This document shows positions 7,601-62,918 of a stretch of 64,000 nucleotides of DNA, in pieces. The translations under genes and the position numbers were made by a program. Position 1 is the first letter of the stretch. Every line of letters begins with the position of its first letter. The stretch is from Candidatus Omnitrophota bacterium (GTDB lineage Bacteria; Omnitrophota; Gorgyraeia; Tantalellales; Tantalellaceae), in assembly GCA_024277375.1 (NCBI GenBank), contig JAJRVD010000025.1, forward strand, positions 19,846 to 83,845. The letters run 5' to 3'. The notes below the pieces were generated by a model. That model had not been told where the DNA came from. It saw nothing but the letters and a program-made list of their open reading frames with translations, and made no database searches.

Positions 7601-7752
7601 TGCAAAACGCTTTTTTTTAATCAGACTGTACCATAATGTAGGGGCTTGATTCATCAAGCCCATTATATCGGGTTCGATGAATCGAACCCCTACAATCAAT
7701 ACATTGTATGCGGACATCCGCAAAACGAATTACGAAAGTCCTATTTTGCAGG
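7601..7752 (+). repeat. MITE-like element, family A, copy 1
   Basis: Outer ends TGCAAAACG / ATTTTGCAGGA; arms CAGACTGTACCATAAT / AATTACGA; core GTAGGGGCTTGATTCATCAAGCCCATTATATCGGGTTCGATGAATCGAACCCCTAC; lies between serA and the aminotransferase gene. Confidence 0.85.
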
Positions 7753-8917: not shown

Positions 8918-8938
8918 CTATTGCTCCTTACATTAATG

Positions 8939-8966
8939 GTAGGGGCGTATTGCAATACGTCCCTAC
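8939..8966. repeat. REP-like palindrome type 3b (GTAGGGRCGTAYYGCAAYACGYCCCTRC)
   Basis: GTAGGGGCGTATTGCAATACGTCCCTAC between clpP and the aminotransferase gene. Confidence 0.75.
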
Positions 8967-8976
8967 AATCGTTAAT

Positions 8977-9793: not shown

Positions 9794-11068
9794 CTATTTT
9801 TTCTCGACTATTTCCGCCTCATCGAGGAGAAAATCCAGTGTTTTATCTTCTCTTATCTGTTCCTCAAGCCCTCCGATAAGATCATTTTCTCTGTAGTATT
9901 CCTTAACTTTGTCGAAGGGTTGGTTATAACTGACAGCGAGATTCCTGATCCATTCCTCCGTCTCTTCGTCCGTGGACTCAACCTTCTCAATGTTCGCGAT
10001 CGCGTCGAGGATAAAATACAATTTAACTTTGTTTTCGGATTCTCTGGTAAGTTGGTCCTTTAGTTCCGCTTTATGCGATTCCATGGTCTTCTCATCTACG
10101 CCTTTCTGCTTCAATTCGTTTTCCGCTTTTTCCGTAAGCACTTTCAATTGTCTCGCGACCATAGTTTCCGGGAGGTCAAAGGCATGTTTCTTGAGCAGTT
10201 GTTCCATGATCTGATTTTTCATAGCCACTTTATCGTTGTACTGTTTTCTCTCTAAGAGTTGTGCTCGCACTTCATTCCGCGCGTCATCCATTGTTTCTTT
10301 GCCTATCTTTTTGGCAAATTCGTCATTCAACTCAGGCAGTTTTTTCTATTTCGTTTCTTTGACTTCAACCTTAAATATAGCTTTTTTGCCGGCATATTTT
10401 TCGTCAGGATAATTTTCCGGTAAAACGATCTCCATGTCTTTCCGGTCTCCTTTTTTTAGACCGATAAGCTCCTCGCCCATCCCCAGAAGAGAGGTTTCTT
10501 TGTCTGCTTCGATCCACATGTTCTCGCGTTTTTTTGAGATCAATTTATCATCCATAAAAGTTTCCACATCACAAACACCAAAATCTCCTTTTTTCATGGA
10601 TCTCTCGATATCACTAAATTCGGCATTCATGCTCTGGAACCGCTCTATGGTCTCCTCTACTTCTTTGCCTTCAACTGTTATCTTCTCTGCGGAAACTTTC
10701 AAACCCTTATATTTCTGTAACTTTATCTCCGGATGTGTATCCACTTTAGCTTTAAATTTAAGACCCCCTGAAGCTTCCATGACCACATCTGAAACCTCAG
10801 GAAGACTTACCGGCGTGATACCGTGATCGTTCAACGCCCATTGATACCCCTCGGAAACCAAACGACGTTGAACTTCATCGGTCGCTTCCTCATGATGATG
10901 TTTTTGCACAATATCCATAGGAGCTTTACCCGTCCTGAAACCCGGAATAGTCACGGTTTTACGAATATCTTCCAGCACCTCTTTATAAACTTCTTCAACT
11001 TTCTGGCTTGGGATCTCTATGTCCAACTGCCTGGACGTTCCTTTAAGTTTTTTTATCTTACCTTTCAT
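9794..11068 (-). pseudogene. tig: trigger factor (tig) interrupted by a single in-frame TAG at 10346-10348
   Basis: ORFs 10346..11068 (N-terminal ribosome-binding plus PPIase domains) and 9794..10330 (C-terminal domain) are in the same frame. Translation reads ...KVEVKETK-TAG-KKLPELNDEFAKK, collinear with the trigger-factor consensus (ELPELDDEFAK). No frameshift; combined length is 424 codons. Confidence 0.8.
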
Positions 11069-17487: not shown

Positions 17488-17513
17488 ATTATTCCTTTCT
17501 TGTTTTTTATGTT

Positions 17514-17541
17514 GTAGAGGCACGGCATGCCGCGCCCCTAC
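17514..17541. repeat. REP-like palindrome type 3a (GTAGRGGCACGGCATGCCGYGCCCCTAC)
   Basis: 28-bp near-perfect palindrome between kdsD and kdsC; shares GTAGGGG/CCCCTAC ends with the MITE core. Confidence 0.75.
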
Positions 17542-21083: not shown

Positions 21084-21180
21084 AATTTTCTTCCTGGAAA
21101 AGCTCTTTACCGTATTTGACAAAGTGGCATACTTATATCGCTTCACTAATGACTCCCCTGTTATTACATATTCAAGGATC

Positions 21181-21345
21181 CTGCAAAATGAAATTTTCGT
21201 CATTCGGACTGTGTCGTAATTCGTTTAGCGGATAGCCGCATAAAATATATCGTAGGGGTTCGATTTATCGAACCCGATATAGCGGGCTTGATGAATCAAG
21301 CCCCTACATCATGGTACAGTCAGATTTAAAAAACAGCGTTTTGCA
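21181..21345 (-). repeat. MITE-like element, family A, copy 5 (reverse orientation)
   Basis: Reverse complement of the full-length element, including outer CTGCAAAATG / CGTTTTGCA ends; lies between the heptose kinase gene and trxA. Confidence 0.85.
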
Positions 21346-21367
21346 TAAGCCTAATTACATATTTCCG

Positions 21368-21394
21368 GCAGGGCGTATCGCAACACGCCCCTAC
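21368..21394. repeat. REP-like palindrome type 3b
   Basis: GCAGGGCGTATCGCAACACGCCCCTAC between MITE copy 5 and trxA. Confidence 0.7.
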
Positions 21395-21399
21395 CCAAA

Positions 21400-23520: not shown

Positions 23521-23532
23521 GACAGCCCCCCG

Positions 23533-23560
23533 GTAGGGACGTACTGCAATACGTCCCTGC
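23533..23560. repeat. REP-like palindrome type 3b
   Basis: GTAGGGACGTACTGCAATACGTCCCTGC between the macro-domain gene start and the upstream heptosyltransferase stop. Confidence 0.75.
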
Positions 23561-23590
23561 ATATTGTTTTATTCACTCCGTTACCTAATA

Positions 23591-26755: not shown

Positions 26756-28849
26756 TTAAGACTGCTTCATAACTTCCATCAAAGCATCAACAACTTTTTC
26801 AGGTTTGATCGAAGTTATACATTTTGATCTATCCTTACACGTCGGTTTATAACAGGGTGAACACTTTAAATTTTTATATAAAACTCTCATGTCTTCTGAC
26901 GGAGGAATATGCCTGTCGGGGTCTGTGGGACCAAAAAGGGCCACAAACGGCGTCCCGGTAGCGGCCGCCACATGCATAGGCGCGCTATCTCCCGTAACTA
27001 AAGCGTTACATCTCTCAATAAGGCTGATGAGTTGTGGAACATTCGTCTTCCCCACCGCGTCTATGGGTTTCGCTTCCGTCTTTTTGAGAAATTCCGCGGC
27101 ACACGGCCTGTCTTCTTCCGCCCCTAAAAGGACGACTCTCATCCCCTTATCACGAGCAAGTATCCGCGCCAATTCCACCATAGCCGGTACTCCCCAGTTT
27201 TTTGTCTCCCATCGTCTCGAGGCGGATAAGCTTAGAGCAACCAGTTTTTGTCCTTCTATCATCCATCGTTCTTTTAGAAACCTTTCGGCCCAAGCCTCAT
27301 TCGCGTCACCCGGCCATAATTCCAGGTTTTGTTTGATGCCTGTAATACCAAGAAGCCCCAAAACAAAGCTTTGATGTTTCACCGGTGTCATGGGTCTCCT
27401 CGGAACGCTGATTTTACGATTAAGAAGGAAACTTAACTTGCCATTATCATAGCCGAATCTTTCGGGTATCGCGCTTAAAAAAGAAAGAAGATGACTCTTG
27501 CGATTATTCTGAAGATCTATCGAAACATCAAAATCCTCTGCTCTTAATTTTCCGGCTAATTTTAAAAATCCGATCCCATTATCCCTGTTTTTAAAGTCAC
27601 CGGCAATGATCTCGTCGATATAGGGACAGTTGTCCAACAGCTCCCTGAAACGCACATCAACGAGGATCTTAATATTAGCGTTTTTAAAGCGGTTTCTAAC
27701 AGCGCGCAGCGAGGGAGTGCTGAGAATAATATCACCGAGCGAACTTATTTTAAAAATAAGTATATTTTTCAGACCAAAAACACGTTTGTACGCTTCCAGC
27801 GTCATAGTCATCGTTTTTTCCAGAGAATAATTCTCTTCCACATATTTCCTGGCATTTTCGGCAACTTTCATGACCAGATCGGGTTCCTCGGCATAACGCA
27901 TGATCTTGGCGGCCATATCGGTTGGATCTTTTGGCGCGCAGAAGAGACCCGTCAAACCATCATTTATATTTTCCACAACACCACCTATTCTGGTAGCTAC
28001 AACCGGAACACCCCTGGCCTGTGCCTCGATAATCGACCTTCCAAAAGCTTCCTGTTCACTGTTTGCGGAAACCAGGACATCTAACCCTCCAATAACATCC
28101 GCTACATCTTTAGTGCTATCAACAAATTTCACCGATCTTTCGATCATCAGGCGACGCATCGTAAGGCTGATCCTTCTAAGATACTCCTCCTTAGCGGACG
28201 TTCTGTCTCCCATCATAACGATCTCAACATCAGGGATCTTACGCAAAACGTGCGCCATGGCTTTCAGAAAATCCACATGACCCTTTAGCGGTGTAAACCG
28301 ACATATCATTCCTACCCGAAAAGGCTTACTTCTCGCGGCCGACGGGGGGACAAAGGAAAATTTCTTAAGATCCACGCCCCGGGGAATAATAGTGATCTTT
28401 TGCCGGGGTACATTGAAATTATCTTTCATGTACCTGGCCATCGTCTCATTGGCGGTAATAACAACTTTTCCCCACCCCATAACTTTACTGATCAGATGTT
28501 TTCTATATTGACCATGCGCGGTTGTAACAAATGTCTTCTGCAAAGAACGAGCGGCAAAGTAACCTATAAGTGCCGGAACCCTGCTTCTGCCGTGTACAAT
28601 ATCTATACTGTCCTTTCGAATGATATGCCTGAGCTTAAAGTAACAACGTATCATGACTAAAGGATTCTTACTGCCTACAGGAAGCGTATAATGGCGTCCC
28701 CCGATAGCGCTGAGATCTTTCTCCATGCGGCCACCTGCCGAGACCACTACCGCTTTATGACCGTTAAGGGTTAAGTACCGGGCGACTTCTATGGTCCCCT
28801 TCTCTACTCCACCGACATTAAGTTTTGGAACTAACTGTAAAATATTCAT
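26756..28849 (-). CDS. bifunctional glycosyltransferase: N-terminal GT4 fused to C-terminal GT9 heptosyltransferase
   Basis: About 700 aa; residues ~1-370 are GT4 (EAFGRSIIEAQARGVP); residues ~375-712 are GT9 (ILIFKISSLGDIILSTPSL ... GDSAPMHVAAA). Start set at MNILQLV to avoid overlap with the upstream gene. Confidence 0.75.
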   Translation of the reverse strand: MNILQLVPKLNVGGVEKGTIEVARYLTLNGHKAVVVSAGGRMEKDLSAIGGRHYTLPVGSKNPLVMIRCYFKLRHIIRKDSIDIVHGRSRVPALIGYFAARSLQKTFVTTAHGQYRKHLISKVMGWGKVVITANETMARYMKDNFNVPRQKITIIPRGVDLKKFSFVPPSAARSKPFRVGMICRFTPLKGHVDFLKAMAHVLRKIPDVEIVMMGDRTSAKEEYLRRISLTMRRLMIERSVKFVDSTKDVADVIGGLDVLVSANSEQEAFGRSIIEAQARGVPVVATRIGGVVENINDGLTGLFCAPKDPTDMAAKIMRYAEEPDLVMKVAENARKYVEENYSLEKTMTMTLEAYKRVFGLKNILIFKISSLGDIILSTPSLRAVRNRFKNANIKILVDVRFRELLDNCPYIDEIIAGDFKNRDNGIGFLKLAGKLRAEDFDVSIDLQNNRKSHLLSFLSAIPERFGYDNGKLSFLLNRKISVPRRPMTPVKHQSFVLGLLGITGIKQNLELWPGDANEAWAERFLKERWMIEGQKLVALSLSASRRWETKNWGVPAMVELARILARDKGMRVVLLGAEEDRPCAAEFLKKTEAKPIDAVGKTNVPQLISLIERCNALVTGDSAPMHVAAATGTPFVALFGPTDPDRHIPPSEDMRVLYKNLKCSPCYKPTCKDRSKCITSIKPEKVVDALMEVMKQS

Positions 28850-28850
28850 A

Positions 28851-30800
28851 TTAGAATAATCTGTACATCCTCTCGTACATCCGTTTATCATCATCAGGCA
28901 AAACGGTTTCGTTTTTGTCTTCTATGGCGCGAATCGTTTCTTTTCTTATCTCGCCCGCCTCTATACATTTGACGTATCCGTTCTTCGCGAGATCATTGAC
29001 AAACCGTTCATACTTGGTGACTTTCCTGGTTTTTTTCTCGGGCATGAAAACCAGGGTTGGCTTCCCGGAAGATACTGCCTCCGAAACCATCGAAATGCTT
29101 TCTCCCGAAACAACAACAACATCACTTTTCGCTAATATTTTTTCAACTGTATTTTTATCCTTATCTTGCACGCCTGAAACAAACTTACCTTTCACCTCTT
29201 TATTCTCAATATTTTCTTTGAGAATCGCTTCAATCTCTTTCGGTGTTCTTCGTGATGTAGTCACGTAAAAACCGCCCTCTATACCGACACACGCGTCACG
29301 TATTCCATCCGCTACAACTTTTGCCAGATCCTCGCCAAAACTGAAATGCGGATTGTCTCCGCCAAACAGCAAGCCAATACATTTTCGCTTGTCATCTGAC
29401 CCGCCCACCGTAGCTTCAGCGAGAGTGGGAGCCTCTATGTGTGCTTTTAGCCCTTCAGGGTCTATAAGATTAGGGGCTAGTTCCGTAACTATCACATTAT
29501 CTCTAACTTTTCCGCGCTGGTCATGTTTTGGCATAACTACAAGGTCAAAGCTCCTGCGATTGCCCCATCCCGGATCAAGCACAGTTACGTTTCGGGCATT
29601 ATTCTCTATTTTTATCATTTTATTAACCCCGAACAGTGTAGATCCGCAACTTATTATAACATCACCATACCGGCTACTTAGAACCTCGTAGCTTTCATTA
29701 GAAAGCGCCCGCTTTAAACATTTTAAACATCCCTGACAACGCCTGGTAAAAAACGGACTTATAGCGTTAAAAACAGCCTTGGCCCGCTTGCTTTTAAACT
29801 GAACTCTGAGGATATCAACTTCAACTTCCCCCTGCCGAAACCCTTCGTCTCTCCTATACATCTCGATCTGTTTAACAACCGCCAACGACTGTTTAAGATG
29901 CCCCTTTTTACCATCGTCCAGAACCATGATCTTTTTAACGGGGGTCAACTTCCATCTCTTATGCATCCAGAACCACTGTTCGGGATACGCCCTTATGTGC
30001 TTTTCGAGAAGCTTATTGTACCTTCGAGCATAAAGAGTAACATCCTCATCTTTTCCGACAACCATGGGTTCTTCCAGGATCAATTCCTGATAAGGTCCCT
30101 TGACCCGGTGAATAAACGCCGGTAATACCCATGCTCCGCTCTTTTGAGCGAATCGGTATGGACCAATGGCTGTTGATGCCGGCCGTCCGAAAAAATCTAT
30201 AAGCTTACCGCTGGTACCCGCGTTTTGATCCGCGAGAAGGCCCACGCTTCTCCCTTCACGAAGAAGCCGGAACATCCTCTTGATATCCATCCCCTTGCGA
30301 ATTACGGTAGCTCCTTTTGATTCCCGCAGCTGATTAAAAAGCTCATTAAGCCTTTTCATTTTCTGCTCTCGCGCCAAAATACACAATGTGTATCCCTTAA
30401 TAGCGCTTGCCGCCGTACTTAATTCCCAATTCCCAAAGTGCGCGGAAACCATTATCATACCCTTCGGGTTTTTCGATGCTTTCTCTATCCTTTCCATATT
30501 TTGGATCTTTATGTATTTATCAACATACTTCTCATCGACCTTTGTCAAAGAAACAAGTTCGGCAAAAGTCTGTGCCATATGTCTGTAAACACCTTTTGAG
30601 ATATGCTTTATCTCTTTTGGTGTTTTCTCCCGGCAGAATGCCGCTTTGAGGTTGGCATATGTTATCCCTATTCTCTTTCCACTCAAAAGACGCACAAGAT
30701 CCCCAAGACACCTGCCCAACCAAAGGTTAAATCCTATCGGCATGACATGAAGAAACCGGTTCAATCCCCTAACCAGAAATGACGCTATTAAGTCCAGCAC
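28851..30800 (-). CDS. LpxL-family lipid A acyltransferase fused to ELM1/DUF1022-like GT-B domain
   Basis: 649 aa; N-terminal ~290 aa are LpxL/HtrB-like (HFGNWE, WFWMHKRWK); C-terminal ~350 aa match the mitochondrial-fission ELM1-like bacterial family (TTSRRTP ... SMVSEA motifs). Confidence 0.7.
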   Translation of the reverse strand: MLDLIASFLVRGLNRFLHVMPIGFNLWLGRCLGDLVRLLSGKRIGITYANLKAAFCREKTPKEIKHISKGVYRHMAQTFAELVSLTKVDEKYVDKYIKIQNMERIEKASKNPKGMIMVSAHFGNWELSTAASAIKGYTLCILAREQKMKRLNELFNQLRESKGATVIRKGMDIKRMFRLLREGRSVGLLADQNAGTSGKLIDFFGRPASTAIGPYRFAQKSGAWVLPAFIHRVKGPYQELILEEPMVVGKDEDVTLYARRYNKLLEKHIRAYPEQWFWMHKRWKLTPVKKIMVLDDGKKGHLKQSLAVVKQIEMYRRDEGFRQGEVEVDILRVQFKSKRAKAVFNAISPFFTRRCQGCLKCLKRALSNESYEVLSSRYGDVIISCGSTLFGVNKMIKIENNARNVTVLDPGWGNRRSFDLVVMPKHDQRGKVRDNVIVTELAPNLIDPEGLKAHIEAPTLAEATVGGSDDKRKCIGLLFGGDNPHFSFGEDLAKVVADGIRDACVGIEGGFYVTTSRRTPKEIEAILKENIENKEVKGKFVSGVQDKDKNTVEKILAKSDVVVVSGESISMVSEAVSSGKPTLVFMPEKKTRKVTKYERFVNDLAKNGYVKCIEAGEIRKETIRAIEDKNETVLPDDDKRMYERMYRLF

Positions 30801-37787: not shown

Positions 37788-39302
37788 TTAAAAGACTCCT
37801 TTTCTGACCATATCAAGAAATATATCCGTAAGCCGGGGGTCAATTTTGTGACCTTTTTCATTTTCCATTATCGCTACCGCCTCATCGATAGAGAACTTTT
37901 CGCGATATGGCCTGTCTGCAGTTAACGCCTCATATATATCGGCTATGCTTAATATCCGCGCTTCCAGTGGGATCCGCCATCCCTTTCGTCCTTTAGGATA
38001 ACCCGAACCATCAAAATTTTCGTGGTGATTTACAATGATAGGTATGGTCTTACGCAGAAAATAGATCAGCCGTGCCATCTCGGCACCCCAGTAAGAATGC
38101 ATCTTCATCTGTCGAAACTCATTTTTTGTCAGCTGTTCTTTTTTGAACAAGATACTCTCTTCTACACCCAACTTCCCTATATCATGCAGAAGCGCTGCCA
38201 CTTTAAGCCTTTCTGTCTTCACTTTACTCAGTTTGATCTTTTTCGCCAGACTGGCGGCAAAGGTCTTAACCCTAGCAGAATGTTCAGCCACCCATGGCTC
38301 ACTTCTCATGCCGGCATCGAACAGTATACCCATCATTTCAAGATGCGCCGCATGCAGCTCTTTCGATGAAAGAGTATGACTTTTCGCGCTACTATCTACC
38401 GGATCCTCCTTTTCTCTTCCGACAAACATATAAAACACGGTTTTCTCTTCTTTTATGGGCACCACCAACCAGGAGATATATTTCCCGGAGACACCGGACG
38501 CGACAACAGGCATATCAAATTTAAAAAGCCTGTTTTTTCTTTTCATCTCTTTATTTATTTTCCACGCGTCGCCTCGCGCAGATTCGGGTATTATACCATT
38601 GATCCAGGACCGATTCATGATATCGTTTTCAAGAAGAGAGAACGCGGTTAAATATTTTTTGTTCACAAAAACAACCTGACCTTCGTTATCCACGAGCATT
38701 ACAGGGTATTTTATGTTCTGCAGCAATCTTTCAGAAAAATAACCCCAAAGAACGGTATTCTCTTCTAACCCCCGGCCTCTACCCTGTCGTCCTTCAAGGC
38801 GGTTACGCATAATATTCTTCACGCGATCTAAAACGATCGTAAGATCGAGTCCCGTAGTATCTATGTGATAGTTCGCTTTCTTGTAATATGGCCGACGATA
38901 TTCCAGAAGTTCTCTTATCATTTTCCGAGGATCATCAACTTCAAGAAGCGGCCTATGCGCATATTCTTTCGTTCTATCGTATATGGCGTCAACATCAGCC
39001 CATAGACATATAACAACACCAGTCCTACGAAGATCCTTCATATTTTGCCGATTCAAAACTACTCCACCGCCGGTGTCGATCACCTGATCCAATTTTGCCG
39101 AAACCTCTTTTACAACTTCTCGCTCGACCGTTCTGAAATATTCTTCACCTTCATCTCTGAAAATATCAGAAATAAGTTTGTCCTCCCGTATCTCTATGAG
39201 ATTGTCTACACTGACGTATTCCTTGCCCGTATCGTGAGCAAGCGCTTTGGCGATCTCGGTTTTCCCGGATCCCATAAAGCCTACAAGTACAATATTTTTC
39301 AT
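37788..39302 (-). CDS. shikimate kinase fused to PAS-like sensor and HD-GYP phosphodiesterase domain
   Basis: 504 aa; residues 1-175 are a complete AroK (GFMGSGKT Walker A, conserved shikimate-binding pattern); middle ~150 aa are PAS-like; the C-terminus carries HDIGK ... HHENFDGSGYP (HD-GYP signature). Confidence 0.75.
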   Translation of the reverse strand: MKNIVLVGFMGSGKTEIAKALAHDTGKEYVSVDNLIEIREDKLISDIFRDEGEEYFRTVEREVVKEVSAKLDQVIDTGGGVVLNRQNMKDLRRTGVVICLWADVDAIYDRTKEYAHRPLLEVDDPRKMIRELLEYRRPYYKKANYHIDTTGLDLTIVLDRVKNIMRNRLEGRQGRGRGLEENTVLWGYFSERLLQNIKYPVMLVDNEGQVVFVNKKYLTAFSLLENDIMNRSWINGIIPESARGDAWKINKEMKRKNRLFKFDMPVVASGVSGKYISWLVVPIKEEKTVFYMFVGREKEDPVDSSAKSHTLSSKELHAAHLEMMGILFDAGMRSEPWVAEHSARVKTFAASLAKKIKLSKVKTERLKVAALLHDIGKLGVEESILFKKEQLTKNEFRQMKMHSYWGAEMARLIYFLRKTIPIIVNHHENFDGSGYPKGRKGWRIPLEARILSIADIYEALTADRPYREKFSIDEAVAIMENEKGHKIDPRLTDIFLDMVRKGVF

Positions 39303-39504: not shown

Positions 39505-40632
39505 TTACATACTTTTTAGTTGCTCCAAATATCCCTCGTAATTCCGGCGGATCTCTTTCATGGAGTCTCCGCCAAACTTCTCTAAAAATACGGCGCCAAT
39601 TTCTATAGCCACAGCCGCTTCGGCGATAACACCGCAAGCCGGAACCGCGGTTACATCAGAACGCTCCGTAGCGGCTTCCGCTTCCTTCTTCGTATCGATA
39701 TCAACAGTTTTTAACGGACTTGCCAAAGTCGCTATGGGCTTCATAAAAGCCTTTACTACAACCGGAGCTCCATTCGTAACTCCGCCCTCTATTCCTCCGG
39801 CATTGTTAGATTCTCGCGTGAACATTCTCCCCAAACTATCATATCCTATCGGATCATGCGTGAGCGAGCCCTTTCGCTACGCGCATTCTATTCCCTTTCC
39901 TATCGAAACCGCCTTTACCGCGGGTATTGCCATAACGGCACGTGCTATCCGACCATCCAACCTTCTGTCCCACTGCGCGTATGTCCCCAATCCCGGAGGG
40001 ATTTCAAGTACCGCGATCTCGATGGTACCACCCAAAGTATCACCGCAAATTTTCGCGTTATCAATGATCTTACGCATACTTTTCGCGGCATTCTTGTCCG
40101 CGCATCTAAGATCTGAAACTTCAGCGATCTTTTTTATTTCATCAAAGAAAAGTCCGTCGGTTTCCGCCTCGACGTTTCCTATCGCGGTAACATGGCTCAT
40201 TACATCAATACCAAATTCTTTAAATATCAATTTCGCGACAGCACCAACAGCGACTTTTATCGCTGTCTCTCGTGCCGAGGCTCTCTCCAGAACATCCCGG
40301 GCGTCTCCAAGAGCATATTTCTGCACACCGGCCAGATCGGCATGTCCGGGACGAGGACATTTTACATCAGGAAGTTTATCGATCTTATGATCCTTATTGC
40401 GTATCAAAAGCCCCACAGGACTGCCTATAGTAAACCCGCCTCGAATGCCGGTCACTACTTCGACCTTATCCCTCTCGATCTTCATCCGGCCGCCTCTACC
40501 ATACCCTACCATACGCCGGGTGAGCTCTTTGTTGATGAATTCTTCATCCATTTTGAGACCCGCGGGCACGCCGTCCAAAACCGCCATTAATCCCTTGCCG
40601 TGGGATTCTCCCGCAGTCATATACCTTAGCAT
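39505..40632 (-). pseudogene. aroC: chorismate synthase (aroC) interrupted by a single in-frame TAG at 39877-39879
   Basis: ORFs 39877..40632 and 39505..39834 share a frame. Read-through gives ...SIGKGIECA-TAG-RKGSLTHDPIGYDSLGRMFTRESNNAGGIEGG, collinear with the AroC consensus (GxGFxxAxxxGSxxxDxI...RSNxAGGIxGG). Total 376 codons. Confidence 0.8.
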
Positions 40633-40828: not shown

Positions 40829-41593
40829 CTAAATTAAAAAATAACCTAAGATCGCATCGCCGTACAATAAACTTATTATCGCCCCTAACGCCAGATAGGG
40901 GCCGTACGCGATAACGTCTTCCCTATGCTTAAGCTTCGCGAAAATACCTACACCGGAACCCATAACCGGCGCGAGAAAAAAAGTAAGAAGTATTAATTTC
41001 CATCCGAGGAACGCTCCAAGCATGGCCATCAGTTTCATATCTCCACCGCCTAATGCCTCTTTTTTGAACAAAACTTCCCCTAAAAGAGCCAGGAGAAACA
41101 TACTGCCGAATCCGGTTACCACCCCCAGTGCGGAATTAATAAACGCCCCCAGCGTTGTCGCGGAACCGTCTAATCTCAACACCGTCATAAGAATAAGCCC
41201 GACGGCTATCCCCTGCAGGCTCAAACAATCGGGTATTTCCTGAAATTCCAGATCAATGAACACAATAACTATCAGCACACATGTTAATGTCCAATAGACA
41301 AAAAACGCGCTGCCCAACGGGTAATAGCGCAAAATGAGCATCGCGCTTAAAGCAGTTACCAGCTCAACCACAAAATACCTTTTAGATATCTTTTCCCCAC
41401 AATGACGGCACCTGCCCCTGAGCGATAAAAAACTTATAAACGGCACATTATCGAACCATCCGATAGTCTTCCGGCATTTCGGACAATAAGAACGAGGTCC
41501 GACTATAGACTCATTCCTCGGTATGCGGTAAATACATACGTTAAGAAAACTCCCTATGATAGCTCCAAAAATAAAAACGATCAAATATTCCAT
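40829..41593 (-). CDS. pilD: type IV prepilin peptidase (A24 family)
   Basis: 254 aa; N-terminal CxxC zinc-finger pairs (CPKC ... CRHC) and the A24 aspartyl peptidase membrane domain. Confidence 0.85.
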   Translation of the reverse strand: MEYLIVFIFGAIIGSFLNVCIYRIPRNESIVGPRSYCPKCRKTIGWFDNVPFISFLSLRGRCRHCGEKISKRYFVVELVTALSAMLILRYYPLGSAFFVYWTLTCVLIVIVFIDLEFQEIPDCLSLQGIAVGLILMTVLRLDGSATTLGAFINSALGVVTGFGSMFLLALLGEVLFKKEALGGGDMKLMAMLGAFLGWKLILLTFFLAPVMGSGVGIFAKLKHREDVIAYGPYLALGAIISLLYGDAILGYFLI

Positions 41594-41684: not shown

Positions 41685-41885
41685 GTCATTCAGACTGTAT
41701 CATAATGTAGGGGCTTGATTTATCAAGCCCGTTATATCGGGTTCGATGAATCGAACCCCTACAATATGTTGTATGCGACCATCCGTAAAACGAATTACGA
41801 CACATCCTTAACCGAGGACATCGTTCCCGAGTAAGTCCCGGGACCAGAGGTTCTCGGGAAAGGGCCGAGTCAAAGGATCTCTTAT
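41685..41885 (+). repeat. MITE-like element, family A, copy 10 (composite with type-2 tail)
   Basis: Core plus arms at 41685-41806, then a tail ending GGGCCGAGTCAAAGGATCTC; lies between pilD and aroE. Confidence 0.82.
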
Positions 41886-42784
41886 TTGTCTCTCTTCAAC
41901 TCCGCCAAAACCGCTTCTTTCATAACTTTTTTCGTCTCTTCAAGAGGCTTCCCCGTCCATATATTAAAAGCAATGGCCGCCTGGTTGATCAGCATACCCA
42001 ATCCATTAACCGCTGTGAGCCCTTGTTCTTTCGCGGTTTTTAGAAGCCTCGTTTCCCGGGCATAGACAAGATCATATACTGTCATCCCCTCTCTTAAACA
42101 CTCAAGAGGAACAGCCGAACGATCATCCCCCTCTTTCGTTCCGATCGGGGTCGCGTTTACAACAAGTTCGCATTAGGCCATTCTTCCGGAAATATCTTTT
42201 GCCTCAACAGGGACGCACGCGTCCGGCCCAAACTGCTTCTTGCAAACAGTTGCCAATTGACAAAGTAGATCCTCTTGCGAATCATAAAGAAATATTTCTT
42301 CAGGTGCCGCCTCACCGATAGAAGCAAGATACATGCACAGAGCTCGCCCCGCCCCGCCGGATCCAAACAGAAAAACCTTTTTACCTTTGGGGTCAAATCC
42401 CGCGTCTTCTTGCAATGATTGATAAAACCCTTCCACGTCAGTATTATACCCCTTAACCTTTTCACCATCACTCCTGACGGTATTGACAGCACCCAGCAAT
42501 TCCGCTTCGCTATCTATAGTACACTTCTGTCCGGATTTCAGCATATCAAACACGGCTATCTTATAAGGTACCGTAACATTAATACCACCAATATTGTTGT
42601 CCTTGATAAGACTCAAGAAATCCTTATCTATATGTTTTGCTCTGGTGTCAAAATCTCTATCGAAAAGTTTATATTCGGTTGGTATGCCAAAATGGGCAAG
42701 CGCCGCATTATGCATGACGGGAGACAAAGAATAGCTTATATTCTTCCCAAGAAGACCGTATACTTTAGCGTTGACGTTCGACAT
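41882..42784 (-). pseudogene. aroE: shikimate dehydrogenase (aroE) interrupted by a single in-frame TAA at 42173-42175
   Basis: ORFs 42173..42784 (N-terminal substrate domain; Rossmann GSGGAGRA) and 41882..42085 are in the same frame. Read-through gives ...DISGRMA-TAA-CELVVNATPIGTKEG...MTVYDLVY..., matching the AroE consensus DLVVNATxxGM. Confidence 0.8.
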
Positions 42785-48511: not shown

Positions 48512-48673
48512 ATAAATCAGGAATCTATCTCCCCCCTGTCATTCCCGCGAAAGCGGGAATCTATTAATATTAATAGTCAGTTCCTATTAAATCAGGAAAC
48601 CAAGGATTTTACAATTACATAAGTATAACACAAGAAATTATGTTGTCAAGCGCTTCTCGGGGAACAAGAATGG

Positions 48674-48701
48674 GTAGGGGCACGGCATGCCGTGCCCCTA
48701 C
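48674..48701. repeat. REP-like palindrome type 3a
   Basis: GTAGGGGCACGGCATGCCGTGCCCCTAC, a perfect palindrome immediately left of MITE copy 15. Confidence 0.8.
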
Positions 48702-49011: not shown

Positions 49012-52000
49012 TTACACCGATCGCCAGACTTCTGACGTCGCCGCGAAGATCTCCTTGATCATACCCATATCCACTTTTGTTATCGCCGGCAATGCCAGGT
49101 TAAAAACTATTTTAACGAAATCTCCTATACCTTTGGAATTAAATGCCTCTACTAATTCTTTCTCGAAATCCTCGATGCTATTCGCATTGTTAGTCGCACG
49201 CGCTAATGCCCTGGCCTTTAGCCTTACGGCGTCTTCCTGGTCTTTCGGTGTTGCTCTATTTTCCTTAGCAAGATTTGCCACATGTCCCAAGTTAAGATTG
49301 GCAAATGATACGCCCATCAAACTGCCGTACGGCATCACAGCCGCAGGATCTTCCGCATTCTCTTTATCCTTCCATATCGTAAGCATAGTATTTTCATTAA
49401 GAAAATCTTCTACACTTTTCTCTCGCGTCAAATCTTTCAACGCCTCTAACTTCTCTAATTCTTCAAGTACCGATCTGGCTATCTGAAGATCTATCCGGGT
49501 ACGGCTATCATCTTCCCCCTTAAACGCGTCAATAGCTTCGCGAATAATTTTTTCAGCTTCATTCGTACCCATTGTATTTCTTAATCTTATGTTACCTTCC
49601 TTGCCCAAATCATGTTCGGCTATAAAGTTGTTTCCGCTGCTTTTCAAAGCGGTTAATCGTGACGCGAATTCCACTTGCGTCACCCCTTCCGGCTTGCCAC
49701 CCGCGATTATACCGTAGCACGGGGGTAGATCTTTACTCATAACTTCAGCGACATCCATTGCAGACGCTTCGACACCCTTCGTCATTGCTTCTTTGACCTC
49801 GTCTTTATTTCCTTCATACGGCTTGCTGCCATCGATGGTCACAGAATCATCGGTTACATTAAATTCTACAACATCCACAGCTTCAAGCTCATCCAAAAAT
49901 TGTTTCCTTATATTGTGATACCGACGTATTATACCGTCAGCCGTATCATCACTTGTTGCTACGAGCCGGACACCATTAAATACGACACTAGACATATCAC
50001 CCGGCAGAAGGTCCTCTACCATTCGGCTAGCAATACTTTCTATTGTTTCATCGGCATCCGGTATCACCTTGAACATCTGGGGCCCATCACCTTCCGACGC
50101 TATTATCTCTTTGGCGCGCGCCAATACCATGTTCTGTCGTTCGATATCAGTTATATCGTTCATCTCAAGAAACCCTACAATATCTGATTCAGCTTTAAAA
50201 ACTTCTTTATAATTATCCGGAAAAATTCTTGCAGCGTTGAGAGAATATATTTCTTCTGCCAAAATGACGGCGTCTTTGAATCTTTGTGTCAATATCAGTG
50301 CAAACGCGTTTTCTTTATCTGACAAACCGGAGATCTCTGCTCTTGCCGTAGATTCTTCAACAAGTTTCTCTCCCTGCGGAGACAAGATCTTTTTAGCCAG
50401 CTTCAATATCTTATCCTGACGTGTACTCTCTCTTATATTGTATTTTTCAAGAAAACTTACGACAGCGTCTTCAGCTTTCCTAGCTGGGGCACCCCAATCC
50501 CTTGCGATAGCAGCATCACCATAAATTCCTTCCGCTAAATTGACATCTCCCCGCTTACCAAAGGGGGATTGTGCTAATAACCTGGCTAAAATGGTATCAT
50601 CCAAATTTTTAAACTTATGATCAGGTAAATTCCCATCATATAATATCTTGTTCAAACTAATCGTCTGCGCGTACATCAATACTATGTCCTGTATCAACTT
50701 TGGAACATCCTTATCTTCAGTATTTTTAATTAGCTGAGGTGAGATATAGAGCTTTCCTGCTTCAAAATATATACCATCCATAATGCCAGCGGTATCGGAG
50801 GGCCTTAGCTCTTTTTCTGCGAACGGAATAGCGATATTCTGTCCACTAGATATGTCTGCAAGCACAAACTCAATTATTTTATTAACAACCGTTTTCGCAT
50901 CCAGAGTCTCATTAATGCCTATTTTTTTAAGAAGCTCTTTCTCCATCCGTTTTGTCATCTGCTCACGATTGTGATTTAATAGCTTGCCCATATCATCCTG
51001 CATATACCTCAGTCCTTCGATCAACCTGAATGCCACACGAACAGTTTTTCCATTAAAGAACATATTGCCATACCATGCGCTTAGTTGCATCTCTTCAAAC
51101 GCGCGGATCAGCTCATTTGCTTTTGCCCTGATAGACACAACCTCTTCCGGAGCATTCAAATACCTGGGATTTATGTATATCACACCATCGTTTTGATGCA
51201 TTGTATACTTCGTCAGGTCCGTAAGATTCTGGTTGTTTAAAACGTCTATATTTGAGGCTCTCTCCATGCTGTTCCTTCTCAACATGTCCGCGACATCTCT
51301 CGCTACCAAATCGAGACTACTCATCTTTACTATTTCATCGAACAGCTTCTTGCCTTCTCCTCCTTCAAGATCTAAAAAGTCAGAGCCATATATTCCAACC
51401 GCTTCCCTATGTAATAAGCCCTGATGACTCTCTGCCGCTAATACAGCAATGGCTTCTGTAACTTTCTTGTCCCTCGTAAATTCTTCCCCGTCCGCTCTTG
51501 CCTGCTCCTCAGCTACCAAGTCTAACTGTGCGAACTCATCTAAGCCTTCAATCACATCACTTCTTTCTTTCACTTCATGGTACAATTGTCTGCTGATCTC
51601 CTCTAAATTTCCCGCATCAAACAATTCCTGTGGTAAATATATCTGCGCTCTCGAAACGCCATAATGTCCGCTCCTTAAACCTGGCACAATTATGATCTGC
51701 ACATCCTTCAATAAACTAGTTCTATTTGGCAGCCCGCCTATAACCTCAACCAATAGCCTCATTTGAGCCGGAACCAATCCGGGAGTTTCATTTTGCTTAA
51801 ATGTTTCTCCAGTTTTTCCGTCGGTTTTCACATAAGATTGGACTATCTCGCCATCATCAAACTGATAGGAAGTGGTTAACCCGTCTTTGAGCGGTTTTTC
51901 GATCCACCTTTTATACTCCTTGTTGTCCAACCCCTCCACGCCGCGGCCGTAGGCAAATTTATTGGAAGTTACATTGCTCTTCTTAGCCTGATAATAATGA

Positions 52001-53844
52001 TTTTGTGTTCCCCCCCTTAATATCCTGTCTCCCTCTCTGATCTCTTCCAGTTTTATCAACATATCATCTCTCAAGCCCTCTTGTGGCTTTGGTCTTGCGC
52101 GGCTGACCACTACAAAAAGATCATCCCCCCACTTCTCTTTGAACAACTCCACGCCGGGAGCAGCATTTCTCCAATCTTTTATCATTTTTTCTATTCGCAA
52201 CAACTTCTCATTCTCCTCAATAAAATCCATCCCATCCATATTCTTTTTTATGTTCCGGATAGTTTTGGCCAACTCTATTACGTTATCGGTAAAGTCTTCC
52301 GAAGACACATCCGCGAATCCATCCACTTTTGCCAGACCCGTCAACTGTTCAAACAGATCCACGCCATAGGCAAAATCCCTGTCTCCACCTTTTTCTATTC
52401 GGTCTCCTTCCATAGCAAGATTAATTATTTCCATAGCGTCCATATCCATGCTCTCGCTGTGTTTAATGCTATATGCCGCGCCTGTTTCATGTATTAAAAC
52501 TTCCGCTAATTGCGTATAATCTTGTAACAAATCCGGGTTCAGATATATCGTTTCGTAACTGGCATGGCCACTTACAGGTATTGACTTGTTCCAAATTTGT
52601 ATGTCCTGTTTCATGATAAAATCTATCTGGGATTCTTCTAACCTTAAACTACGAAGAGCAGCTTTTAGTTCCTCCAGGTCTTCGCCCTGCTCCCCAAACT
52701 TATGCATTCCTGCCTCTTTCCCTAATGCGTCTATCCATACTTCATGCTGCAGATACGTCATCGTGTCACCGTCTACAAGAACAATGTCTATGAAGTCCGC
52801 CATACGCCGAATATCCTTATCTGTTTCTACGTAAATATCGACCCCTATTAGAAGCCCTACATCCATAGCAAACCCGGTATCCGAATGTCTTGGTGCTATG
52901 TATGTGGTATCATAATCGGCCGAATGAATGTCTATCCACCCAAACTTGGTCTTAATCGTCAACGTTTCGTTTTTGGCTAACGCTTCCGCTGCCTTGACCA
53001 TCAACTCCATCATATTTTTATTTCTCACATCTATACCCATCTCAGAAAACAGGCTCTGTACGGCTATGGTAGAAGCTCCGGGGGTATAAGAGACCGCTTT
53101 GGTTATAAGCTCCTCGAAGGGCGACTTTTCGCCCGCCAGAAGAGCAAAATACGGACTGTCTTCCTCAACTTGAAGGCGTGGCATTACCTCGATGTATGAG
53201 TATCCTTCTTTTTCAAAGAGTTCCGCCAGGTTTTCCGTATGGAATCCCCCTGTTACAAGAACGGCTATTTTTTTGTCACCGAACTTAGCTCCGATATTCT
53301 TTAAAAACGCGTCATCCCTTTTGAATGCATAGTCATAGAATCCTTCCATATGTTCTCTATAGGAATCTAGTTTTGCTATACCAGAAGGAGTTGTTAGTTT
53401 CAGGCCGTACTGCGGAGCCTTCGCGTCAAAAAAGGCGGTAAAACATTTAACTCCGAACCCGTCTCTGTTGGCCTTGTAATACTCATACTTGTCCCTGACA
53501 AGTGAAAGTGCGAAGAGATCCTTAAGTATGCTCAGTTTTTTTGAAAGTTCGATGAGCCTCTCCTGATCAGGAGTTTTCGCGAACGTCTTCATAAGAGCCT
53601 CTTCTATTTTCCGTACGTCCTTATTAAGGGACGCTTTATCAATATGTTCATAATTTTTCACATATTCAGCATATTTAACAAGGTTGGGCAACTTGCTAAA
53701 GTCTACCGACGCGAATTCCGCTTTCTTAAAAAGATATACATAAAAATCTTCGGATGAAATGTCACCGGTCTTGAACGCGATGGTCTTAACAGCCAGACGT
53801 TTGGCGGCTTTTCTGGATAGTTTTTTGGTAAGTTTATCGATCAA
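49012..53844 (-). CDS. giant hypothetical protein (1,610 aa in this ORF)
   Basis: Uninterrupted 4.8-kb ORF with coding-like composition and no recognisable catalytic motif; a rho-independent terminator follows at 48925-48967. The ORF-track start is a TTG with no RBS, and the ORF is in frame with the upstream ORF 53959..54702. Confidence 0.6.
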   Translation of the reverse strand: MIDKLTKKLSRKAAKRLAVKTIAFKTGDISSEDFYVYLFKKAEFASVDFSKLPNLVKYAEYVKNYEHIDKASLNKDVRKIEEALMKTFAKTPDQERLIELSKKLSILKDLFALSLVRDKYEYYKANRDGFGVKCFTAFFDAKAPQYGLKLTTPSGIAKLDSYREHMEGFYDYAFKRDDAFLKNIGAKFGDKKIAVLVTGGFHTENLAELFEKEGYSYIEVMPRLQVEEDSPYFALLAGEKSPFEELITKAVSYTPGASTIAVQSLFSEMGIDVRNKNMMELMVKAAEALAKNETLTIKTKFGWIDIHSADYDTTYIAPRHSDTGFAMDVGLLIGVDIYVETDKDIRRMADFIDIVLVDGDTMTYLQHEVWIDALGKEAGMHKFGEQGEDLEELKAALRSLRLEESQIDFIMKQDIQIWNKSIPVSGHASYETIYLNPDLLQDYTQLAEVLIHETGAAYSIKHSESMDMDAMEIINLAMEGDRIEKGGDRDFAYGVDLFEQLTGLAKVDGFADVSSEDFTDNVIELAKTIRNIKKNMDGMDFIEENEKLLRIEKMIKDWRNAAPGVELFKEKWGDDLFVVVSRARPKPQEGLRDDMLIKLEEIREGDRILRGGTQNHYYQAKKSNVTSNKFAYGRGVEGLDNKEYKRWIEKPLKDGLTTSYQFDDGEIVQSYVKTDGKTGETFKQNETPGLVPAQMRLLVEVIGGLPNRTSLLKDVQIIIVPGLRSGHYGVSRAQIYLPQELFDAGNLEEISRQLYHEVKERSDVIEGLDEFAQLDLVAEEQARADGEEFTRDKKVTEAIAVLAAESHQGLLHREAVGIYGSDFLDLEGGEGKKLFDEIVKMSSLDLVARDVADMLRRNSMERASNIDVLNNQNLTDLTKYTMHQNDGVIYINPRYLNAPEEVVSIRAKANELIRAFEEMQLSAWYGNMFFNGKTVRVAFRLIEGLRYMQDDMGKLLNHNREQMTKRMEKELLKKIGINETLDAKTVVNKIIEFVLADISSGQNIAIPFAEKELRPSDTAGIMDGIYFEAGKLYISPQLIKNTEDKDVPKLIQDIVLMYAQTISLNKILYDGNLPDHKFKNLDDTILARLLAQSPFGKRGDVNLAEGIYGDAAIARDWGAPARKAEDAVVSFLEKYNIRESTRQDKILKLAKKILSPQGEKLVEESTARAEISGLSDKENAFALILTQRFKDAVILAEEIYSLNAARIFPDNYKEVFKAESDIVGFLEMNDITDIERQNMVLARAKEIIASEGDGPQMFKVIPDADETIESIASRMVEDLLPGDMSSVVFNGVRLVATSDDTADGIIRRYHNIRKQFLDELEAVDVVEFNVTDDSVTIDGSKPYEGNKDEVKEAMTKGVEASAMDVAEVMSKDLPPCYGIIAGGKPEGVTQVEFASRLTALKSSGNNFIAEHDLGKEGNIRLRNTMGTNEAEKIIREAIDAFKGEDDSRTRIDLQIARSVLEELEKLEALKDLTREKSVEDFLNENTMLTIWKDKENAEDPAAVMPYGSLMGVSFANLNLGHVANLAKENRATPKDQEDAVRLKARALARATNNANSIEDFEKELVEAFNSKGIGDFVKIVFNLALPAITKVDMGMIKEIFAATSEVWRSV

Positions 53845-53958
53845 AGCCCGACGTTCCCTGTTGGCTTTTTTAAAATCAATAGACTTTTCGTCCCCAAGCA
53901 GTTTAAGAAGAGCATTAACATCCGCGTGTTGCTCAATATCTACACCGTTAGCCTTACT

Positions 53959-54702
53959 TTACTTCGCTAGAAAAGTTACATATTCTTTAAACTCAATTTT
54001 TTTCCCATTATATGCCATACGTTTTCCATCAACAACTTTAAGAGCCGACGTGTATATCTTGCGCTTTAAATTACTCATCCCGTTCTCTAAAAATTTTAGG
54101 TATCTATCGGCATCCTCTTTAAACGCCAGCGAACTCCTGTAAGCGTTTAAGTTTCCAAAATATAACTCTTCATTTTCGATCCCTGAAAGCTCGATCTTGT
54201 ATGGATTGTTTATAGCGAAGAATTCGGCACCTGTAACACGTCCGGCTTTCACAAATAAGTCGGATACCTGTTCTCTTACCTGTCGGTCACGTATGTCGGT
54301 AAACATCGACAGGTCATACTCGCCCGCTCCCCCTTCAAGAAACGCGAGATCCGCGCCATAAGCTTCATTGGTATACTTCATGAGGTTGGCGATAGATCGT
54401 TGGGCGGAATAGTTACAATGGGCGTCCTGGATGTGGATGATCGTTTTACCATTCTCACCGGAGATCCTGCGTTTTATCTCTCCAAAACGTAGCGGCACCG
54501 TAGAGGAGGCGGGGTCGAATTCCTCCCGGGCATATACCTCGCCTCCCGGGATACCGGCAATAATTCCCGGCACCTCGACAGCAGCGATGGCTCTAGCCAG
54601 ATCCGCGCCTATCATTGTGAACGAAAAAGAACACAGCGTAATTATCGCGAATGTTCTCATCAGCGTCTTTCTGAGACCGGTTTTATTATTAGAATAACAC
54701 AT
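53959..54702 (-). CDS. hypothetical secreted protein (possible N-terminal part of the giant protein)
   Basis: 247 aa; N-terminal signal/TM segment; strong AGGAGGA RBS before ATG 54702; same frame as 49012..53844, separated from it by one TAA plus 38 stop-free codons. Confidence 0.55.
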   Translation of the reverse strand: MCYSNNKTGLRKTLMRTFAIITLCSFSFTMIGADLARAIAAVEVPGIIAGIPGGEVYAREEFDPASSTVPLRFGEIKRRISGENGKTIIHIQDAHCNYSAQRSIANLMKYTNEAYGADLAFLEGGAGEYDLSMFTDIRDRQVREQVSDLFVKAGRVTGAEFFAINNPYKIELSGIENEELYFGNLNAYRSSLAFKEDADRYLKFLENGMSNLKRKIYTSALKVVDGKRMAYNGKKIEFKEYVTFLAK

Positions 54703-57081: not shown

Positions 57082-57235
57082 TTATCCCCCCTTTGTATCT
57101 GTTCCATTTTAACGCAATCGAAAGCAAAATCAAGATTATTCATAAAAAGTGAATGTATTTGACCAAAAAAAGTGTCTTATACTAATGAGAGGGGGTATCG
57201 CAGAAGTCAGGAGTCAGAATGATAAAGGGGAACAT

Positions 57236-57904
57236 ATGCTACAACTCAAAATTATCACATCGGCCATTATTAACGTTTTGTTTCCCGCGGAGTGTCCCGC
57301 GTGCAAAACCCGATCGGCCAAGTTTCCTGTGCCAATCTGTGAGAGATGCACACAGGATATCTCATCAAGTTCGTCGCTACCATCTACTTCGTCTTTTTAC
57401 CTTGCGAAGATACTCTCCTGCCGCCCGTATGATGGGACACTCAAACAATGTATCCGACAATTTAAATACCATCGAACAGAACGAATGATACTCGTCTTTG
57501 ATGAACTCATCAAAAAAACATACCTGAAAAATAAACATTCACTTAACGACATAGACATCATTGTCCCCGTTCCAATTAACAAACACAAAAAACGTCTGCG
57601 CGGGTTTAACCAAGCTGAGATACTAGCGCAGGTACTTGGTAACACCCTTTCACTACCGGTACCTTCCGCCAACCTTAAAAAAATAAAAAAAACTATCCCC
57701 CAGGCCGGACTCTCAAAAGAAAAACGTATTAACAATTTAATAAAAGCATTCTCTATTCGGGAACCACTTCTAATAAAGGAAAAACACATATTGTTAGTGG
57801 ATGACGTTATGACAACGGGAGCGACACTTGACACTTGTGCCAAGGAACTTTTAAAGGCCGGAGCAAAATCAGTCACTGGCTTTACGCTGGCGAGAACGTT
57901 ATAG
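57236..57904 (+). CDS. comFC: ComF-family phosphoribosyltransferase-domain protein
   Basis: The only plus-strand gene; N-terminal CxxC...CxxC zinc finger; C-terminal PRTase motif LLVDDVMTTGATL; start at the internal ATG (MLQLKII). Confidence 0.7.
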   Translation: MLQLKIITSAIINVLFPAECPACKTRSAKFPVPICERCTQDISSSSSLPSTSSFYLAKILSCRPYDGTLKQCIRQFKYHRTERMILVFDELIKKTYLKNKHSLNDIDIIVPVPINKHKKRLRGFNQAEILAQVLGNTLSLPVPSANLKKIKKTIPQAGLSKEKRINNLIKAFSIREPLLIKEKHILLVDDVMTTGATLDTCAKELLKAGAKSVTGFTLARTL

Positions 57905-62869: not shown

Positions 62870-62892
62870 TTTCCCCCTTTTTTTGATTTGAT

Positions 62893-62918
62893 AGGGGCAC
62901 GGCGCGCCGTGCCCCTAC
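62893..62918. repeat. REP-like palindrome type 3a variant
   Basis: TAGGGGCACGGCGCGCCGTGCCCCTA between ahcY and metK. Confidence 0.75.

Follow-up and report, generated by a model that had tools for sequence, protein, structure and literature searches.

In-frame stop codons within conserved genes can encode an amino acid, as in the reading of UGA as glycine in Gracilibacteria and SR1, of UAG as glutamine in recoded phages, and of UAG as pyrrolysine. They are also found as nonsense pseudogenes in the recently degenerating genomes of Sodalis, Shigella, Salmonella Typhi and Mycobacterium leprae, and according to bacterial pseudogene surveys and mutation-accumulation data, roughly one in four to one in three disrupting lesions is a nonsense change. 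Furthermore, raised counts of internal stops are often the result of assembly error, with low-quality short reads mainly adding internal stops and not frameshifts, and MEGAHIT adding the most (Cooley and Wright 2024, PMC11017572). Here we describe an in-frame TAG in the chorismate synthase gene (aroC) of an uncultured Omnitrophota bacterium, along with three more interrupted genes in the same stretch of 64,000 nt, which we refer to as the window. Like the known recoding systems, these genes carry stops inside conserved sequence, and the alignment is continuous over them; unlike in those systems, the same codons end most genes here, two stop codons are involved, and the residues aligned to them are inconsistent. 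The window resembles the degenerating genomes in having single lesions in conserved genes, several per short stretch, in its abundant repeats, and in its intact relatives, whereas those genomes carry frameshifts or insertions at least as often as nonsense changes, and here all four lesions are nonsense, with no other decay visible. The presence of internal stops without frameshifts, in otherwise intact genes of a single assembly, is likewise shared with the artefacts described by Cooley and Wright 2024 (PMC11017572), although four per 64 kb would imply far more error than is usually reported, and the contig is 87.5 kb long. The TAG in aroC has arisen by recent mutation or through an error of the assembly, and is no new way of reading TAG.

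The aroC gene is located at 39505-40632 on the minus strand, as a frame of 375 codons including the internal TAG, with its terminal stop at 39505-39507. A clean in-frame TAG at 39877-39879 had been noted in the sequence-only reading, and translation of the minus strand bears this out, with codon 252 embedded in GAA TGC GCG TAG CGA AAG GGC (E C A stop R K G, within 39895-39865; the plus strand reads CTA at the stop). The upstream ORF (39880-40632) encodes 251 aa ending in SIGKGIECA, and covers positions 1-235 of the 327 in the Pfam profile Chorismate_synt (PF01264; E = 1.1e-78). The remaining C-terminal third (39508-39876, minus strand) comprises 123 codons starting with RKGSLTHDPIGYDS, which stay untranslated if the TAG terminates, and covers positions 238-325 of the same profile (E = 9.1e-25). 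With the stop replaced by X, the joined query of 375 aa aligns end to end with Omnitrophota chorismate synthases of 375 aa at up to 72% identity, and in one stretch, from residue 2 to 374, with the PDB entries 1Q1L (E = 1.7e-115) and 1QXO. The proposed continuity of the alignment over the stop is thus confirmed by the Pfam matches of both fragments, by the homologues of equal length and by the two structures, and this continuity is no chance event. An alignment of orthologues had been suggested as a check; among the 119 AroC homologues that we aligned, none is interrupted at the stop column.

About 100 invariant columns are shared with 32 homologues, before the stop as well as after it; the C-terminal third holds the family-invariant residues H259, D260, R273, N276, G279-G284, K298-P299, E323-R324 and D326. 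L137F is the one deviation at columns where at least 97% of homologues agree, and identity to the best homologues is 63-69% for the C-terminal part and 71-73% for the N-terminal part. As such, the gene has the profile match and the invariant residues of a chorismate synthase, and what it lacks is an uninterrupted ORF for the full enzyme, owing to the TAG at codon 252. It shares full-length homology with the chorismate synthases of PF01264, 1Q1L and 1QXO included, and a relative has the same gene neighbourhood; it differs from the intact enzymes in that the frame is broken at codon 252, leaving an annotated product of 251 residues. A singleton entry for this product traces to an NCBI contig of 87,523 bp, and the stop is therefore present in the deposited assembly. 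Since the truncation lies ahead of the segment with H259, D260 and E323-R324-x-D326, the fragment, devoid of the conserved C-terminal third, is predicted to be inactive. The column of the stop itself is variable in the 119 homologues (G in 40, S in 34, A in 19, Y in 7, F in 4, R in 3 and E in 2, plus others), so that no consistent decoding is implied. The original codon would most simply have been TCG for serine, and less likely GAG for glutamate or a TAY for tyrosine.

The sequence-only reading had placed the rest of the pathway, aroK and aroE, next to aroC. Both genes are indeed adjacent (37788-39302 and 41882-42784, respectively), but to call them the rest of the pathway overlooks that aroE carries an in-frame TAA of its own. 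On the minus strand, aroK is an intact ORF of 504 codons in which the shikimate kinase is fused to a PAS and an HD-GYP-type HD domain, with Pfam matches to SKI at residues 10-151, PAS at 191-278 and HD_5 at 335-491. Between aroC and aroE lies an intact gene for a PilD-like prepilin peptidase (40829-41593, minus strand; A24_N_bact and Peptidase_A24), and the aroE gene is situated two genes upstream of aroC. A syntenic locus of a relative, L001 on contig CAZGQR010000005.1, encodes an AroC of 69% identity within the order leuA-aroE-pilD-aroC-aroK-(PAS/HD)-dprA-topA-xerC, which places the peptidase gene at the same position. The aroE and aroC genes of the window each align with this locus as a single uninterrupted segment. 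In L001 (7129-8659), the kinase and the PAS/HD protein are encoded by two neighbouring ORFs, of 175 and 343 codons, respectively, with a 29-base overlap and a change of frame between them.

Shikimate dehydrogenase (aroE; 41882-42784, minus strand) has 300 codons and is interrupted by TAA at 42173-42175. In the junction GRMA-stop-CELVVNATP, the stop separates the Pfam domains Shikimate_dh_N (upstream) and SDH_C (downstream), and the stop column has glutamate in 50, glycine in 22 and lysine in 17 of the 119 full-length homologues. Trigger factor (tig; 9794-11068, minus strand) has 424 codons and a TAG at 10346-10348, with the junction VKETK-stop-KKLPELNDEFAK. Trigger_N and FKBP_C precede this stop and Trigger_C follows it, which places it where the PPIase domain meets the C-terminal domain, in a column that is glutamate in 84 of 119 homologues. 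The fourth gene, at 49012-54702 on the minus strand, encodes a large secreted protein of unknown function (~1,896 codons), which is split by a TAA at 53959-53961 into ORFs of 247 and 1,610 codons (EYVTFLAK-stop-SKANGVDIEQ). It has a signal peptide and no Pfam domain. Searched with X in place of the stop against 1.84 billion representative proteins, it has 7,895 homologues at E of at most 0.001. Nearly all of the best 150 of these cover query position 248 in a single stretch, typically from ~15 to 594, and a conserved N-terminal module is made up of the first ~600 residues. Locally aligned, 60 of these best homologues are likewise unbroken over the stop, at a variable column with lysine in 22 of the 60 and an otherwise mixed composition. 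These best 150 homologues range from 565 to 7,165 residues in length, which recalls the giant proteins of Omnitrophota.

Interrupted genes were sought as same-frame open segments parted by one stop, with ~52 ORFs annotated by Pfam. The tally of internal stops over these ~52 genes and ~19,000 codons comes to two TAG, two TAA and no TGA, and no frameshifted gene was seen among them. The ~48 other genes look full length, their Pfam profiles being covered end to end. Other same-frame junctions, namely cdsA/dxr, kpsF/kdsC and that of two glycosyltransferases, turned out to be ordinary gene boundaries. At the ends of 50 genes we found 30 TAA, 12 TAG and 8 TGA codons, and several of the TAG and TAA codons are followed by the next gene start within 3-10 bases; cdsA for instance terminates in TAG at 2325, with the ATG of dxr three bases downstream. 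Because all three codons end genes, tight gene pairs included, the genetic code of this Omnitrophota genome is standard. Set against the 1,379 glutamate codons (72 per 1,000), the four in-frame TAR codons in ~19,000 are few. The special status that the sequence-only reading implied for the aroC TAG is therefore not supported, with three more internal stops in the window and TAG ending 12 of 50 genes. The window holds no tRNA genes, and no Rfam family scored above threshold anywhere in it, the vicinity of the aroC stop included. In the literature on Omnitrophota we found nothing relevant on stop-codon recoding, suppression, the genetic code or pseudogenes.

The window has a G+C content of 44% and an extreme strand bias, with ~50 genes on the minus strand and on the plus strand one convincing gene, for a ComF-like phosphoribosyltransferase (57149-57904). 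Within the lipopolysaccharide cluster, two minus-strand genes (26756-28894 and 28851-30800) encode unusual fusions, a protein of 712 codons with GT4 and GT9 (heptosyltransferase) domains, and one of 649 codons with a lipid A acyltransferase domain and an ELM1-like domain. Furthermore, the intergenic regions contain a dense repeat family (~70-155 nt), of which at least 15 copies were counted over the 64 kb, in either orientation (at 7610, 9607, 11739, 14852, 21175-21354, 31821, 37525, 39345, 40702, 41679, 42957, 44674, 45899, 46516, 48705 and 55276), and copies flank both aroC and aroE. Its core, GTAGGGGCTTGATTCATCAAGCCCGTTATATCGGGTTCGATGAATCGAACCCCTAC, forms two small hairpins within a GTAGGGG...CCCCTAC clamp; the repeat, which resembles a REP or MITE element, has no match in Rfam, and its core has no exact match in the JGI metagenome contigs. 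Two more families of small palindromic intergenic repeats, GTAGGGGCACGGCATGCCGTGCCCCTAC and GGTAGGGGCGTATTGCAATACGTCCCTAC, have the GTAGGGG/CCCCTAC ends in common with the large family, and are found at 17508-17541, 48668-48701 and 62885-62918, and also at 8938-8967, 21366-21395 and 23532-23561.

Alignments with 119 homologues were made for each of aroC, aroE and tig, and in all of these homologues the frame runs through the stop column. The only truncated matches among those listed for the four genes are the fragments from the contig itself (P0051, P0121, P0122 and P0363), all of them singletons of one NCBI contig. The nearest relatives are only 58-72% identical, and the collections searched therefore hold no close strain. 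A scan of genome contigs gave, among the matches listed, only relatives at up to 69% identity, and an exact pattern of the aroC stop context, with the stop codon left free, had no match in the JGI metagenome contigs. No second copy of this organism was found in the protein collection, the index of encoding contigs or the JGI metagenomes. By these comparisons, the four stops are specific to this Omnitrophota assembly or lineage.

So how old could these stops be? In aroC, aroE and tig, the sequence after the stop is as similar to the homologues as that before it, and residues private to the window gene are at or below expectation (z = -0.2, -1.9 and -0.3, respectively). At columns with at least 97% conservation, each of the three genes deviates once, a count that lies in the range shown by individual homologues. 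It should be noted that these constraint tests have low power, as the relatives are 58-72% identical and one or two extra changes would go unseen; despite this, they rule out old pseudogenes. The stops, the continuity with intact homologues, the standard stop usage, the intact relatives and the lack of visible secondary decay are all observed directly, and the stops are most readily understood as very recent single-base nonsense substitutions. The simplest routes would be GAG to TAG in tig, GAA to TAA in aroE, TCG to TAG in aroC, and AAA or GAA to TAA in the large protein. Because the stop columns of tig and aroE are mainly glutamate, a single G-to-T change from GAR to TAR is the simple route for these two. 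By these routes, three of the four changes would fall in the G:C to T:A class, which is suggestive only (p ~0.1), as this class makes up 33% of nonsense paths. No sequence motif common to the four sites, such as methylation- or context-specific miscalls would call for, was seen, and given the codon usage, the chance that all four stops would be TAR is 38%.

The reading that we favour, at a probability of about 0.45, is that the stops are genuine and recent loss-of-function alleles in the sampled Omnitrophota population. In such a scenario, the TAG of aroC would have arisen from a sense codon by one base substitution, in a genome with the standard code, and would terminate translation to give the fragment of 251 residues. 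Drift or hitch-hiking could have brought the four alleles to fixation, perhaps helped by a mutation process that is biased to substitutions in this lineage, and the two hits in the shikimate cluster would make this lineage dependent on external aromatic compounds. We infer the presence of the stops in the cells, the inactivity of the products and the cause of their accumulation. As in pseudogenes, the in-frame stops stand against intact orthologues, and the relatives are intact. Two of the four hits being in the aroK-aroC-aroE cluster mildly favours relaxed selection at the level of the pathway; this is a weak test, as the gene lengths give a probability of ~0.12 that, with aroC hit, aroE or aroK is hit too. 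The dense MITE- or REP-like repeats fit weak purifying selection. Moreover, we know of no common sequencing platform that would yield such substitution-only error at the consensus level on a contig of 87 kb. Against real alleles counts that tig and aroC are core genes, kept in every relative found. Furthermore, since nonsense changes normally account for a quarter to a third of disrupting lesions, four out of four without a frameshift are unexpected (~1%) unless the mutational spectrum is unusual. Real alleles thus require an unusual factor, which a substitution-biased mutator or strong drift could provide. As a phenomenon, nonsense mutation is of a known and ordinary kind, and what is unusual here is only the pattern, nonsense-only and TAR-only in core genes.

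Somewhat less probable, yet a serious contender, are base-call or consensus errors in the metagenome assembly, in which case all four sites would have sense codons and the four genes would be intact. The lesions being substitutions only, with no frameshift in ~52 genes, agrees with this, as does the otherwise normal constraint on each interrupted gene, and the four truncated products are singletons of one contig without an independent assembly. Substitution-type lesions at a raised density, without indels and in one unreplicated assembly, are indeed what artefacts would look like, although non-specifically so. Two to three of the four changes are compatible with G:C to T:A, a class that Illumina G/T miscalls are known to produce, as is oxidative damage in library preparation. 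The required number of errors, however, is large. Nonsense changes make up 4.2% of the possible substitutions in the coding sequence of the window, and four random nonsense errors would therefore imply ~45-100 substitutions in 57 kb without any indel (~96 if the errors are random, and roughly half of that if all are G:C to T:A). This amounts to a consensus substitution error of ~0.1-0.17%, which exceeds the usual error of a short-read consensus by orders of magnitude. Moreover, a contig of 87.5 kb speaks against very low coverage, long-read errors would bring along frameshifts that are not seen, and the four sites are without a common motif. As such, assembly error also needs something unusual, and an error-prone short-read consensus would be what rescues it. 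Should the stops be artefacts, substitution errors would be unusually frequent in the deposited genome, and pathway calls based on it, such as 'aromatic amino acid auxotroph', would be wrong.

It is unlikely that the stops are real and are partly read through, either by an ochre-type suppressor tRNA acting on both UAA and UAG, or through leaky RF1-dependent termination. Reduced amounts of full-length AroC, AroE, Tig and the large protein would then be made, and TAR nonsense alleles would be tolerated. In line with this, the internal stops are all TAA or TAG and never TGA, frameshifts, which suppression could not rescue, are absent, and in aroC, aroE and tig the sequence after the stop is as conserved as that before it. 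Three of the four stops are also at variable columns that tolerate most residues, tig being the exception with its 84 glutamates. Conversely, TAR at all four sites is expected by chance in 38% of cases, and 42 of 50 genes need TAA or TAG as their terminator, often a few bases before the next gene. The window has no tRNA gene, and we found no report of suppression or recoding for Omnitrophota. Furthermore, the base after the stop varies (A, C, T and A), and the sites include UAAU, a strong terminator according to the context rule from work on E. coli. More improbable still is a weak natural UAA/UAG suppressor or leaky RF1 that would allow for 'buffered nonsense' in core genes, possibly as an early step in codon reassignment. 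If true, buffered nonsense would be a standing state in a free-living bacterial phylum; tolerated UAA/UAG read-through is the only reading of wider interest, and we grade it as unlikely.

Reassignment of TAG, or of TAA and TAG together, to an amino acid, as in amber-recoded phages, pyrrolysine or ciliate-type codes, is highly improbable. In its favour is the bare presence of in-frame TAG and TAA inside conserved genes, and nothing more. In contrast, TAG ends 12 genes and TAA 30, with the next gene within 3-10 bases in some pairs, in-frame use is as rare as four in ~19,000 codons, and no homologue has a stop at the stop columns of aroC, aroE or tig. The aligned residues furthermore differ by site, being E in tig, E, G or K in aroE, G, S or A in aroC, and K in the large protein. 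Reassignment was thus rejected on both the usage at gene ends and the lack of one residue shared by many genes. Pyrrolysine decoding was rejected as well, as the ~52 genes offer no pyl genes or methyltransferase context, and pyrrolysine would leave the TAA stops unexplained. Whether the stops are real or artefacts, the TAG in aroC is not evidence for TAG recoding. Equally improbable is a functional split of aroC into residues 1-251 and a C-terminal piece re-initiated from the TTG at 39834, which could draw on the 109-codon ORF that this TTG opens in the same frame downstream of the stop (39505-39834) and on the tig stop coinciding with the PPIase/C-terminal domain boundary, but such re-initiation would drop 14 residues, the family-invariant H259 and D260 among them, none of the 120 best homologues has a split AroC, the aroE stop lies between Pfam-matched domains directly before the conserved ELVVNATP motif, and we take neither the aroC nor the aroE stop to be at a structural domain boundary of these enzymes.

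This brings us back to genuine loss-of-function alleles, and to what these would mean for the organism. If the stops are real, the sampled population has only just lost chorismate synthase and shikimate dehydrogenase, and carries a truncated trigger factor. As such, they would show directly that metabolic dependence is under way in a phylum that is suspected of host-dependent lifestyles.
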